A stretch of DNA of 6,764 nt, from the IMG/VR virus record IMGVR_UViG_2660238215_000004; one strand, 5' to 3'. Positions 1 through 6,000 of this stretch are shown piece by piece; positions within the stretch are counted from its first letter, which is position 1, and each line of letters starts with the position of its first letter. The DNA is from a virus. Its lineage: Duplodnaviria; Heunggongvirae; Uroviricota; Caudoviricetes. Made by a program: the position numbers.

Positions 1-3000
1 TAATGATCTGGCAGCCTGAGTTCACAGATAAAATACTCTCCAGGAAACCCGGGGCGGTTCAAACTGCGCCGATTTTGGTTTCAAATACGCCGCCGTCCAG
101 CTCCCCAATAAATGCCTGCACATCAGTACTGCGTTCGCTAGCCATTTTGCTGCTCCTCATCATATCGACCCTGCAAGGTCGGTTGGTTTCTCCACAAAAC
201 GGAGAAGAACACCTGCGGTGGCTGCCGCCCGGATGGATTGGGTTATGAGCCCGTCGTCCGGTGATGCTCTTCTCTGTTTTGTAAAAAGAGCGGTACCAGC
301 CGGAAGCAAGGGTACAAACTGGTACCGCCAAAGCAGTGGCTGTTGTGGTGGGGTTGTCACTCAGGCGTATGGTCAACCTGACAATCCGGTGTCCTCAACG
401 GGGAAAGAGTAACCCCGCCATACTTACCGCCGCGCCATTTCGCGGATTACCACAACGCTGAGAGCACTTAGCCAGTTACGGCACCACACTTTGTCGCGGC
501 TCCATAAATGCCCTCATCGTTGCACCCTGGTCTCTTCCCAGGCGTCAAACCGAATCGCCACGCTGGTTAGGCGTCTTATCAGCATCATCATTGACTTGCA
601 CATTCCGGCTACCTGGTTTGTTTGCCCGAGCAAGGAGTGGATTGTCCCCTTTAACGTCCCCAGACCGCTAACGACGCATGTGCCATACGCCGTGTTACAA
701 CCAAATTTTGTTAGTACCTTGTTTGTTTGTCTGGAAAGAAAGATAAAATGAAGTTGCGCATTATGCAAGTGTTTTTGTTGCGAGATATGCAATTTAAAGG
801 GTAATGAAAAGCCACCTTTGGGTGGCTAATTGATGAGGAGGTAAGGGTTAATTGTGTCGCTTAAGGGTTTGTGACTGGCTGATTAAGACCTTTCCAAAGA
901 CCATAAACCGGTGTTCATTTTCGCTGGTAATTCCCCATTCACGGTAAATCTGGTTATCAGAAATCACCAGTAGTTTGTCAGGTATCATTTGCAGTCGTTT
1001 GACATAAATTTTATCATCAAAACCAAATACATAGATACCATCTCCATCAAACTGATTGATACTGACATCAACGAAGATGAGATCTCCTGGCTCAATGGTT
1101 GGACACATACTGTCCCCACGAACGTTGATAACTTTAATGTGATTGGCTGGCCGTCCGCCAAACATCGATACAGCATTATCAGTTCTGTATTCAATGGCAT
1201 GAATCACATCAATGACATCACCGCCCTGGATAAGGCCATTTCCCGCACTGGCACTGACATCCAGCATTTCAATACGGAATACATCCTTCACCTGCGCAAC
1301 ATCCTCACTAATACTGTTTTTACATACAGTATTACTTTTGAAGTCTGAGGTAAAGAGATCAGCAATATCAACACCTAAGCTCCTGGCAATATTACTCAGG
1401 GCTTGTTCAGTGAATTGTTTCTGCTTACCTGTTTCCAGGCGTGAGATATTCGCCGCATCCACTCCTATTGCTTCAGCGAGATCGGCGATTTTCATGTTCT
1501 TCGCCTGGCGAAGTTGTCTGACTCGGTTTCCTATGTTCATGCGTTTATTACATTTCTTTATTGCGCGTTAAGCAAATCAACTTGCGCAAAATATTTGCGT
1601 GAAATAATATGCTCATCACGCAATATGTGGAGGTCATATGCAATCACCATTACGGAATGTGCGTAAGGCGCACGGATTTACTTTGCAGCATGTTGCTGCT
1701 GGCGTTCAGGTCAATCCAGCGACGCTGAGTCGTATTGAAAGACTGGAACAAATTCCATCTATCGATCTTGCAGAACGTCTGGCCAATTTTTTTAAGGGTG
1801 AAATCAGCGAAATGCAGATTCTTTATCCGGCACGTTTTCAATCTAGCCAAAACCAGAATGGGTTTAAACCACAGGAACAGGAGGTAAGCCGTGGGTAATC
1901 ATCACTGGAAAGTGGAAAAACAGCCTGAGTGGTACGTGAAAGCTGTCAGAAAAACTATCGCGGCGTTGCCGGGGGGGTACGCTGAAGCTGCTGAGTGGCT
2001 GGATGTAACAGAGAACGCATTATTTAACCGCCTTCGTGCCGATGGCGATCAGATTTTCCCGCTGGGATGGGCAATGATTTTACAACGTGCTGGTGGCACT
2101 CACTTCATTGCTGACGCTGTGGCGCAGTCTGCAAATGGCGTCTTTGTGTCTCTTCCTGACGTCGAGGATGTGGACAATGCCGATATTAACCAGCGTTTAC
2201 TGGAAGTCATTGAACAGATCGGCAGTTATTCAAAACAGATTCGTTCGGCAATCGAAGACGGTGTAGTGGAACCGCATGAGAAGACAGCAATTAACGACGA
2301 GCTGTACCTCTCAATTTCGAAGCTGCAGGAGCATGCAGCACTTGTCTACAAAATTTTTTGCGTTTCAGAAAGTAATGACGCCCGCGAGTGTGCAGCTCCG
2401 GGCGTCGTGGCGTTTTGTGTCCGTGGAGAAACTAACGCATGAACAGTTTAACAACACACTACCGTCGCTCGCAACTGATTGCGCTTCCTGTACCGGGTGG
2501 AAAAGCGAAGGTGGAGTATTGCTATGCAGTAAATGTACCAGGTGACAGGGAAATTGTAACCCACAGCTTTGCTGAGTGGGCTGTGGGGGATTTCAACCGG
2601 CAGAAGGAGACAGTCCTTTGCGACAAGTTAACCGCTGGTTCAAAGATCACTACGGAGTGCCCGTCAGAGTCATTCGTTGGGAGCCGGAAACACAACGGGT
2701 TATCTACCTCCGTGAAGGCTATGAGCATGAGTGCTTCAGCCCGCTCGAACAGTTTCGTCGTAAATTCAGGGAAATAGAGGTCGGTCATGAGCACTAAATT
2801 AACCGGCTATGTATGGGATGGTTGCGCTGCGTCAGGCATGAAATTATCCAGCGTGGCAATTATGGCCCGCCTGGCTGATTTCAGTAATGACGAAGGTGTG
2901 TGCTGGCCATCAATTGAAACTATTGCCCGTCAGATTGGCGCGGGGATGAGTACCGTCAGAACGGCTATCGCACGGCTGGAAGCAGAAGGCTGGTTAACGC

Positions 3001-6000
3001 GTAAGGCGCGTCGCCAGGGTAACCGCAATGCGTCGAATGTTTATCAGCTTAACGTTGCGAAGCTTCAGGCAGCGGCATTTTCTCAACTGTCAGATTCTGA
3101 CCCGTCAAAATCTGACGCATCAAAATCTGACCCGTCAAAATTTGATGCGTCGAAATCTGGCAAAAAAGCGGGTTTTCACCCGTCAGAATCTGGCGGGGAT
3201 CCGTCAGTAAAATCAAAACATGATCCGTCAGATAAAAAACCTTCTCGTCCGGACGCTTCGCAACCGGACACGCAGACGGCTGAACAGGATTTTTTAACTC
3301 GCCATCCTGATGCGGTTGTATTCAGCCCTAAAAAGCGCCAGTGGGGAACGCAGGATGATTTGACCTGCGCACAGTGGCTCTGGAAAAAAATCATTGCCCT
3401 GTACGAGCAGGCCGCCGAATGTGACGGCGAGGTGGTTCGTCCCAAAGAACCGAACTGGACAGCATGGGCAAACGAAATTCGCCTGATGTGTGTGCAGGAT
3501 GGTCGTACTCACAAACAAATCTGCGAGATGTACAGCCGCGTCAGCCGCGATCCGTTCTGGTGCCGTAACGTGCTCAGCCCGTCGAAGTTGCGGGAAAAAT
3601 GGGATGAGCTTTCCCTGCGCTTATCGCCGTCCGTCAGCACGCACACAGAAAAACGTGAAGACCCGTACTTCAAAGCCAGTTACGACAACGTGGACTACAG
3701 CCAGATCCCGGCAGGATTCAGGGGGTGATCATGAGTCTTTTGAATGACGTTCAGAAATTCATTGAAGCCCATCCGGGCTGTACTTCCGGAGACATTGCAG
3801 ATGCTTTTGCTGGTTACTCACGGCAGCGCGTTCTGCAGTCAGCAAGCAAGTTACGTCAGAGTGGGCGTGTGGCTCACCGTTGTGAAGGAGATACACGCAG
3901 ACATTTCCCGCGCCTGACTGAGAGAGCGCAGGAGCCGGAACCACAATCTGTTCGTGAAACCAGACCTGTGCGCAATTTCTATGTCGGCACTAACGACCCC
4001 CGGGTGATTTTGTGCCTGACCCGCCAGGCTGAAGAACTGGAGTCCAGGGGCTTATTCCGTCGAGCTGCAACGGTGTGGATGGCGGCATTCCGTGAAAGCC
4101 ACTCCCAGCCAGAACGAAACAATTTTCTGGCGCATCGTGAGCGGTGCTTACGGAAAAGCAGCAAGCGCGCTGCATCGGGTGAAGAGTGGTATCTGTCAGG
4201 GAATTACGTGGGGGCTTAATGAGTAATAAATATTGCCAGGCGCTGGTGGAGCTGCGGAACAAACCAGCCCATGAACTGAAGGAAGTGGGCGATCAGTGGC
4301 GCACGCCGGACAACATTTTCTGGGGAATTAACACCCTGTTTGGCCCGTTTGTTCTGGATCTGTTTACTGATGGTGATAACGCCAAATGTGCCGCTTATTA
4401 CACTGCGGAAGACAACGCGCTGGCGCATGACTGGTCAGAACGTCTTGCGGAGCTTAAAGGTGCTGCCTTTGGTAATCCCCCGTACAGCCGCGCCAGTCAG
4501 CATGAGGGGCAATACATCACCGGCATGCGTTACATCATGAAACATGCCAGTGCTATGCGTGATAAAGGCGGGCGCTATGTTTTCCTGATCAAAGCTGCCA
4601 CCAGCGAAGTGTGGTGGCCGGAAGATGCAGACCATATTGCTTTTATTCGCGGGCGTATTGGTTTTGAACTGCCTGCCTGGTTTATCCCGAAGGATGAGAA
4701 GCAGGTGCCGACAGGCGCTTTCTTCGCTGGTGCTATTGCTGTTTTCGACAAGACCTGGAAGGGACCGGCAATCAGCTACATCGGGCGCGATGAACTTGAG
4801 GCATGTGGTGAGGCGTTTCTGGCGCAGGTTCGCCAGCAGGCGGAAAAACTGGTCAGGGAGATGGCGGCATGACGACGTTAACTCAATGCCAGCAGCAGGT
4901 GCTGGATATGCTGATTTCTTATCAGAAAGAACGTGGCTTCCCGCCAACCAATCAGGAGGTGGCAACCATGCTGGGATACCGTTCAGTGAATGCAGCGGTG
5001 GAGCATCTTCGCGCACTGGAGAAAAAAGGCGTCATCACGATAAAGCGTGGTGTGGCCCGGGGGATCACGCTTCATACCGTGGTGAAGGACGACGACAGCG
5101 AGGCGGTCGGGATTATCCGCTCACTGCTTGCCGGTGAGGAAAACGCTAGGCTGCGTGCAGCCCATTGGTTACATGAGAGAGGCCTGAAAGTATGAAGCTG
5201 CTCCTGCCTTTTCCGCCCAGCGTGAACACGTACTGGCGACACCCCAACAAAGGGGCGTTTGCTGGTAAGAGCCTGATAAGCGCGGCGGGGCGAAAATTCC
5301 AGAGCGCGGCGTGTGCAGCAATAGTTGAGCAGTTACGTCGTCTGCCGAAACCAACGTCGGCACCTGCTTCAGTGGAGATCGTGTTGTTTCCTCCGGATAA
5401 CCGGATCCGCGATCTGGACAACTATAACAAGGCGCTGTTTGACGCCCTGACCCACGCGGGTGTGTGGGAAGACGACAGTCAGGTGAAAAGAATGCTGGTG
5501 GAGTGGGGACCGGTTATCCCGGAGGGGAAGGTCGAGATCACTATCAGTAAGTACGAAAAAGCGAGTTGCAAATTAGCAACTCGGTAACGGAATTGAGCAA
5601 CACCCTAAATTTGGGTATTACCTCGTTAAAGATACTGTATTTATGAACAGTGTATCCTTGATAACTATTAAAAATCGCAGTAAGTTCATCCGGCATCAAC
5701 GAAAAGGGAGTGCAGTCCCGCTCGTGGATAAAAATTTGTGGAGAAACCAATGAATCAGTTGCTTGTAATTGATGGCGTTTCTGTGCGCCAGTACTTCGAA
5801 TCTAACTACTGTCTTAACGACCTTCAGAAAGCTGCTCTTCTTGCCGCTGGTGAGAATCGCTCCTCCCGTTCGCTGGAAGTTCACGAGTTTATGCGTCGTC
5901 CTGAAACGAAGGCTCTTGTGGAATTATTGGAAGAAGAAACTACGGGAGATTCCCGTAGTATTCCTGTCATCACCATTCAGGGGCGCAATGGTGGGACGTA

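Follow-up and report, generated by a model that had tools for sequence, protein, structure and literature searches.

A lambda-O-family replication initiator with a DnaT-type C-terminal tail and no detectable helicase loader gene in a lambdoid prophage

The C-terminal part of the lambda initiator O recruits P-DnaB, and Enterobacterales possess DnaC and DnaT. Here we describe an initiator of the lambda-O family, encoded at 2787-3728 (+, 313 codons plus TGA) of a 6,764-nucleotide stretch of DNA (IMG/VR record IMGVR_UViG_2660238215_000004, Caudoviricetes; this whole stretch is hereafter called the window), which ends like host DnaT and is accompanied by no recognizable gene for a helicase or helicase loader. 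The C-terminal tail of DnaT has been described as a flexible segment of about 20 residues (PMC5778457). According to the preprimosome structures, the helical domain of DnaT contacts PriA and its acidic linker contacts PriB, the tail contacting neither (PMC13377028), and no direct partner of DnaC has been shown among PriA, PriB and DnaT (PMC11087952). The hand-over from the restart preprimosome to DnaB-DnaC was stated to be unknown in papers of 2024-2026 (PMC11087952, PMC13377028), and dnaC is regarded as a gene domesticated from phage (PMC5109545), a phage origin also being given by Brezellec et al. Our literature searches returned no prior description of a DnaT tail in phage initiators, no statement that lambda-O-family initiators carry the DnaT tail alone or that tail class predicts loader class, and no proposal of the DnaT tail as a candidate docking element for DnaC or DnaB-DnaC.

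Lambda O is the closest described relative. Like lambda O, the window protein is a two-domain initiator with a DNA-binding N-terminus, its gene takes the position after cII and contains iterons in the DNA coding for its own linker, and its C-terminal helical domain is homologous. The protein matched phrog_391, 'replication initiation O-like' (E 9e-136), as well as phrog_277, and BLASTP aligned its residues 70-277 with residues 78-270 of lambda O (30.6% identity over 216 residues, E 8e-26). The N-terminal winged-helix DNA-binding domain is encoded at 2787..3080 (+, residues 1-98) and corresponds to Pfam HTH_36 (residues 23-70); in this it differs from lambda O, since no lambda-O N-terminal family was found among its Pfam matches. 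In the AlphaFold2 model, built from 39 homologues, a linker rich in Ser, Lys and Asp and made of SKSD repeats is predicted to be disordered (residues 102-160, predicted local distance difference test, pLDDT, <50), the lambda-O-type helical domain (3270..3626, +, residues 162-280) is predicted with confidence (pLDDT about 87-97), and the tail (residues 283-313) has low confidence. Beyond the helical domain lie a low-confidence spacer (3627..3692, +, residues 281-302, pLDDT 45-67), whose length and sequence vary freely among homologues, and a DnaT-type terminal motif, DYSQIPAGFRG (3693..3725, +, residues 303-313). It is here that the second difference appears: lambda O ends ...LDLTNTDWIYGVDL and is overlapped by the P gene, whereas the window protein ends ...DYSQIPAGFRG and no P gene follows. 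By sequence, the protein is a member of the lambda-O family; the winged-helix N-terminus, the in-gene iterons with an AT-rich stretch and the C-terminal homology were all found, and a loader or helicase gene directly downstream (P, DnaC-like or DnaB-like) was not.

The iterons form an array at 3089..3194, a putative origin composed of six 13-bp palindromic sites around GTCAAAATCTGAC, five of which are 15 bp apart while the sixth lies 33 bp further on. With up to three mismatches allowed, the pattern had 12 matches against 2.2 expected, 10 of the 12 falling within 3089-3194, and none of 200 shuffles reached 12. The array covers codons 101-137 of the 313 codons of the initiator, similar to the lambda iterons at codons 117-145 of the 299 of O, and its DNA doubles as coding sequence for the disordered SKSD-repeat linker. 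To its right is an AT-rich stretch (3198..3245, 65% AT) with two GATCCGTCAG(T/A)AAAA repeats, which is, by analogy with lambda ori, a candidate unwinding region; no 40-mers of the gene are richer in AT (70%) than those beginning at 3204 and 3206, within 3204-3245. Iterons followed by an AT-rich stretch are also the layout of the lambda ori within O. The initiator gene very probably carries its own origin. As well, GATC occurs at 3198 and 3222, inside the GATCCGTCAG(T/A)AAAA repeats (3198-3236) beside the iterons, and the phage encodes a Dam methylase (4186-4872); methylation control of the origin is possible.

The C-terminus had been likened to that of host DnaT in an earlier note made from the sequence of the window, and this likeness was confirmed. 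The last nine residues, SQIPAGFRG, are identical at 8/9 positions to SQIPPGFRG of E. coli DnaT, each at the extreme C-terminus. Profile-profile alignment (hhalign) of the initiator family with DnaT joined just the last 19-27 columns, with a probability of 92-94% and E of 2e-7 to 6e-7. The tail of DnaT orthologues reads [KR]RDxNxxSEPDxxIPPGFRG, in which I, P, G, F, R and G are invariant. Across 26 distinct DnaT tails, P, G, F and R never vary at positions -5, -3, -2 and -1, and the same residues are kept in 25 distinct phage tails, except in one tail with W for F and one with K for R. Homologues of the window protein keep [IV]PxGFRG although the preceding spacer varies, and some phage tails match DnaT over about 17-20 residues, such as VNHISEPDTEIPPGFRG and RDVNAISEPDNTIPEGFRG (P0070/P0075), the latter having its counterpart, RRDVNAISEPDNHIPRGFRG, in some DnaT orthologues.

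The likeness does not reach beyond the tail. The Pfam DnaT model (PF17948) had no match in the initiator even at E<=10, the helical cores alone gave a probability of 0.1% when compared profile with profile, a search of the initiator family profile against PDB chains did not find the DnaT chains, and BLASTP of the initiator against DnaT gave no match beyond the tail and one weak colinear segment of 15 residues. For this reason, the suggestion that residues ~190-313 correspond to the DnaT C-terminal domain had to be given up, this region being homologous to lambda O instead; similarity to DnaT in profile searches holds for the tail columns and fails for the helical core. The window protein has no PF17948 three-helix domain, which binds ssDNA in DnaT, and neither the N-terminal oligomerisation domain nor the acidic PriB-binding linker of DnaT was found; what it does have is a flexible C-terminal tail of the kind that ends IPPGFRG in DnaT. 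In addition, the window protein is origin-specific, with its winged helix and iterons, while DnaT is fork-specific. In sequence terms, what recalls DnaT is a short linear motif, ~10-20 residues long, grafted onto a lambda-O-type helical domain. Both proteins end in [S/T]x[IV]PxGFRG, at a free C-terminus behind a disordered spacer.

The two systems also share the architecture of the junction with the next gene. At the initiator-yfdN junction (TTCAGGGGGTGAtcATG, 3717..3733, +), as read from the sequence, the stop codon is followed by 2 nt and ATG, and the last initiator codons, TTC AGG GGG, are the Shine-Dalgarno of the next gene, whose start is likely ATG 3731 and not GTG 3725 as called by the open reading frame (ORF) finder. 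The same arrangement of stop, 2 nt and ATG is found at the host dnaT-dnaC junction (GGGTAAcgATG) and at the initiator-dnaC junction of two Enterobacter prophages, L095 and L110 (GGGTAAgcATG), so that the junction of the DnaC-carrying prophages, GGATTCAGGGGGTAAgcATG, equals that of host dnaT-dnaC, GGATTCAGAGGGTAAcgATG, in architecture. The tail codons differ synonymously among loci (ATC/ATT/GTT, CCG/CCA/CCT and GGA/GGG/GGT, with TTT CGC GGT in L106), and the motif is kept even at loci whose next gene begins at a distance of 12-40 nt or more, which shows selection at the protein level.

The absence of a loader was examined in the window and in its closest relatives. A prophage of E. coli O55:H7 CB9615 is 99.97% identical to window positions 62-6743, and the same module is present in Shigella phages SfII and SfIV, phage mEp460 and many Stx2a-converting phages, the SfII initiator being identical at 311/313 residues. 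No helicase or loader was detected by Pfam in any window gene, and tblastn queries with E. coli DnaB and DnaC, P of lambda, a second lambda-P protein and a DnaC-like protein from a phage found none in the window or in the whole of SfII. Likewise, the annotation of the complete SfII genome (41.5 kb) and that of the CB9615 prophage from integrase to terminase include no helicase or loader, and the unannotated early proteins of SfII belong to DUF551, HD/YfbR-like, DUF968/HNH and similar families, none of which is a loader. The strict Walker A motif, GxxxxGK[ST], does not occur in the listed window ORFs; the sole strict match in six frames, GSPAGGKT at 4827-4850 (+), lies in the frame of a LexA-like gene upstream of its first start codon and is probably a chance match. 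The strict pattern was rejected as a sufficient test for a loader, as E. coli DnaC carries GKPGTGKN, and a relaxed Walker-A scan of the window genes gave no match. The earlier note had thus read the locus correctly in several respects, namely a lambda-O-like initiator with no phage loader or helicase downstream, a succession of PerC-like, Dam, LexA-like and RusA genes in its place, and no Walker A motif in the window ORFs; nor was a loader found just outside the window, either in the CB9615 prophage or in SfII. As far as homology can tell, a loader or helicase is missing from the module.

To place the tail among its relatives, 70 loci with relatives of the core domain, one genome per species, were surveyed, and the initiator C-terminus and the neighbouring genes were inspected; a profile scan of viral contigs with the C-terminal-domain alignment gave only loci 99-100% identical, and the survey was based on a scan of genome contigs. 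Three tail classes were distinguished. A lambda-type tail (WNxxEAWxxxL, DWIxGVDL, as in lambda O) was present at 29 loci, and a lambda-P homologue overlaps the stop codon in 29/29. A 'QDYRAGVxxDGSF' tail was found at seven loci of Oxalobacteraceae, followed in 7/7 by a DnaC-like gene of a second family. The DnaT-type tail was found at 17 loci, with lambda-P in 0/17, a DnaC homologue in 3/17 and no loader in 14/17, homologues of DnaB, DnaC and P all being absent from the flanking +-6 kb in these last. For 'any loader', the Fisher p is 3e-10, or 5e-8 when duplicate tails are removed, with the kinship of the loci ignored in both cases.

Each of the three DnaC homologues behind DnaT-type tails begins 2 nt past the initiator stop; they match Pfam IstB_IS21 and share 48% identity with E. 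coli DnaC. Among them, L095 and L110 (prophages of Enterobacter mori and E. vonholyi) share with the window a lambda-O-type core (68-79% identity), a DnaT-type tail and the lambdoid order cI, cro, initiator ... RusA, Q, but they carry the DnaC homologue where the window has a PerC-family gene. L110 is a bona fide lambdoid prophage with a RecE-like exonuclease, cI, cro, RusA and Q, and a tblastn search of the phage collection with its initiator found no sequenced phage of the DnaT-tail plus DnaC type. The loader-less loci with DnaT-type tails come from Enterobacterales, except for two metagenome-assembled genome bins (labelled Bacillota and Veillonella) with E. coli-type sequence. In the third class, the tail reads (N/H)GNFxxQDY(R/H)xG(V/I)xxDG(S/T/K)F (L134, L136, L138, L140 and L144-L146, from Duganella, Janthinobacterium and other Oxalobacteraceae), and the DnaC-like gene, always next, is ~36% identical to E. 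coli DnaC, with homology beginning 58 nt before the initiator stop. In the core, identity to the window protein reaches 75% among P-paired relatives and is 67-79% for most relatives with DnaT-type tails; two close homologues without the DnaT-type tail, P0033 and P0050, each have an overlapping lambda-P gene directly 3'. Since core identities interleave among the tail classes, tail and loader seem to have been exchanged as one unit.

A second core family was recovered when a DnaT profile was searched against 1.84 billion cluster representatives, which gave 184 matches. About 50 of these are proteins of 220-580 aa with a true DnaT_C domain (PF17948) at the C-terminus, often behind HTH_36, and with tails of the DnaT type, the lambda type or other types. 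Behind the lambda-type tails of P0406 and P0423 comes an overlapping lambda-P gene, and no loader lies near the DnaT-type tails of P0380, P0459 and P0408, so the association of tail with loader holds in this independent family too, albeit weakened by two proteins, P0433 and P0418, that are considered below. DopC, which belongs to a described pair, DopC/DopE, resembles the window protein, as do other HTH_36/DnaT_C initiators, in the HTH_36 N-terminus, the DnaT-derived C-terminal sequence and the phage-type initiator/loader cassette. However, DopC has a real DnaT_C domain and a P-like loader, whereas the window protein has a lambda-O core, the tail only and no loader; of the DopC-like combination, HTH_36 is present in it and the DnaT domain absent. 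DnaT_C is widespread beyond DnaT (P0380-P0496), and two of these proteins, P0465 and P0456, are 54% and 39% identical to the N-terminal domain of the window protein, an indication that N-terminal domain, core and tail are freely shuffled. On metagenome contigs L164 (4517-5191) and L165, an ORF of 125 aa, 300 nt past an HTH_36/DnaT_C initiator with a DnaT-type tail, matches the lambda-P profile over 95-162 only and looks like a decaying P gene.

The co-variation of tail and loader places loader specificity in the terminal tail, and we infer that the tail binds the loader, its host partner here being DnaC or DnaB-DnaC. In the mechanism that we propose, the winged-helix N-terminus would bind the iterons within its own coding sequence, as in lambda, and the last ~15-30 residues past the helical domain would, in lambda-like relatives, form an exchangeable tail that determines loader choice, the loader itself being the product of the next gene. 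In the window protein, the lambda-P-specific tail would have been replaced by the host DnaT tail (...IPxGFRG-COOH), with the loader gene absent, and the initiator assembled at the origin would capture host DnaB-DnaC via this tail, through DnaC or a surface of the complex, by the same contact that the tail of DnaT itself would make in the restart primosome. Where a cognate loader of the DnaT-type tail is encoded, it is a near relative of host DnaC, and host DnaC-DnaB is the obvious substitute where none is encoded. On balance, we lean towards the view that, on the initiator bound at the origin, the tail docks DnaC or DnaB-DnaC. The earlier idea that the host DnaC-DnaB machinery is recruited by primosome mimicry is in this way partly retained: in the light of the tail-loader co-variation, use of the host machinery instead of a phage loader is the best reading, while the mimicry shrinks to a motif of ~10-20 residues.

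Several points weigh against this interpretation. The partner of DopC, a protein with HTH_36 and DnaT_C, is the P-like DopE (Brezellec et al. 2017, PMC5509034). P0433 has a DnaT-type tail and, 300 nt downstream, what is left of a P gene, its 3' third, which no intact frame precedes; P0418, also with a DnaT-type tail, has a P-like ORF 1.8 kb downstream, with an HNH gene and an opposite-strand gene in between. Whether read as exceptions or as intermediates, the two weaken a strict tail-loader rule. The co-occurrence statistics are not phylogenetically independent, and 'no loader' depends on homology to known loader types. Moreover, recent papers lean towards the N-terminal domain of DnaT (PMC13377028, PMC11087952), which is the preferred recruiter of DnaB/DnaC in the account of the 2026 preprimosome structure (PMC13377028). 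Finally, oligomerisation is the sole experimental role of the DnaT tail that we found in the literature (PMC5314882; PMC5778457), DnaT lacking residues 162-179 being described as a dimer and not a trimer (PMC5314882, citing Szymanski 2013).

Among the alternatives, the tail might bind another host protein (DnaB alone, PriA, PriB, SSB-interaction pockets or DnaG), the origin being served by a PriA-type primosome or by direct capture of DnaB, which we regard as rather unlikely. The C-terminal tip of SSB is DDDIPF, and acidic residues followed by I-P-x-x-F near a free C-terminus loosely recall that tip. In the lambda-O-core set, a close DnaC homologue is the sole loader family beside DnaT-type tails, which speaks for DnaC as the partner, although this adjacency also fits a tail that binds DnaB within DnaB-DnaC. 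The tail of DnaT is left with no assigned partner in the recent papers (PMC13377028, PMC11087952), which would leave room for another host protein, yet the contacts with PriA and PriB in the preprimosome are made by the helical domain and the acidic linker (PMC13377028).

The oligomerisation data could instead mean that the tail is a self-association element, which would aid assembly of the initiator on the iterons, with the helicase recruited via the helical domain, DnaA or another factor. The change of DnaT from trimer to dimer upon loss of its 18 C-terminal residues (PMC5314882; PMC5778457) is in line with such a role, and the tail is disordered beside a helical domain in both DnaT and the initiator. 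The DnaT tail would dock on the DnaT domain, however, and that domain is absent from the window protein. Self-association also leaves unexplained why, in two unrelated cores, the type of tail goes with the family of the neighbouring loader, and why it is the tails most similar to DnaT that lie directly 5' of DnaC homologues, and we hold it to be unlikely.

It is very unlikely, in our view, that an unrecognised phage loader, such as the PerC-like YfdN or another small early protein, docks on the tail. yfdN does follow the initiator with the same coupling of stop, 2 nt and ATG as in dnaT-dnaC, and several early proteins of SfII have no family assignment. Nevertheless, the gene in this slot varies among loci with DnaT-type tails (PerC, MT-A70, Dam, DUF977, ParB-HTH or DUF1627, and also RuvC-like or antiterminator genes), no conserved candidate gene accompanies the tail, and YfdN, with its PerC domain and MarR-like matches, resembles a transcription factor. 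Lastly, that the terminal similarity reflects a constraint on the DNA or chance, with no shared protein function, is hardly credible: TTCAGGGGG does act as a ribosome-binding site, placed 6 nt ahead of the following ATG in the window as in dnaT-dnaC, but the synonymous codons and the distant next genes described above, together with conservation that reaches IP and the upstream SEPD, superfluous for a ribosome-binding site, do not support a purely Shine-Dalgarno explanation, and an 8/9 terminal match would be expected by chance at ~1e-10 per protein pair, as roughly estimated from residue frequencies.

Gene order and annotation mark the window as the early-right operon of a lambdoid prophage. 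It begins with a cI-like repressor (848-1540, -), cro (1638-1898), a YmfL/CII-like gene (1891-2442) and YmfM (2439-2777, +, 112 aa), which lies directly upstream of the initiator. Downstream are the PerC-family gene yfdN (3731-4219, +; Pfam PerC, E 7e-8, its extent based on the SfII_42 annotation and the start codon), the Dam methylase (4186-4872, phage-encoded, 3' of yfdN), a protein consisting of a LexA DNA-binding domain only (4869-5195, +, PF01726, E 3e-19, 108 aa), and, by Pfam, RusA and then KilA-N. This LexA-like protein (4869-5195, +) has no S24 self-cleavage domain and could be a competitor at SOS boxes or a non-cleavable repressor. The YmfM ORF (2439-2777) is 97% identical to YmfM of the e14 element of E. 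coli K-12, annotated as 'cell division inhibitor YmfM'; in the RefSeq record of CB9615 just its last 59 codons are annotated, as a DUF4222 protein, and in SfII the full 112 aa. Residues 1-79 of the initiator (window 2787-3023) have 98.7% identity to the N-terminal YmfN/oweE fragment of e14 (NC_000913.3; L172 3671-3904), so that the K-12 'oweE' pseudogene is a remnant of such an initiator, fused to a terminase gene. In the CB9615 prophage, an anti-phage sirtuin gene, dsr1, adjoins the integrase (L160 2246-6073). The ends of the window, 1-61 and 6744-6764, have no counterpart in the related phage and E. coli records, all of which align to 62-6743 only, and no tRNA or ncRNA hidden in the window was found.

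The initiator gene is common, its DNA being matched in 3357/5426 complete E. coli genomes, with many copies 100% identical. Public records label it 'replication protein O', 'helix-turn-helix domain-containing protein' or 'primosomal protein (I)', and the last label indicates that annotation pipelines have already touched on the DnaT similarity. The interpretation of the tail is new, and it has a testable implication for replication restart. Tentatively, and with less assurance than for the docking itself, we suggest that initiator tails form a modular 'loader code', that the ~20-residue tail of DnaT docks DnaC or DnaB-DnaC on PriA-PriB-DnaT, that host dnaT-dnaC derives from, or shares ancestry with, a phage cassette of initiator tail and DnaC, and that SfII, SfIV, mEp460 and many Stx2a phages, which lack a loader, may rely on that contact when they begin replication with only host DnaC. 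The DnaT tail is thereby nominated as the link between the restart preprimosome and DnaB-DnaC, and the initiators that carry it form a very common prophage family, with members in over half of all complete E. coli genomes as well as in Shigella phages that convert serotype and in many Stx2a phages. If true, this would explain how medically relevant phages replicate with no loader gene of their own, and it would fit the published phage origin of dnaC.

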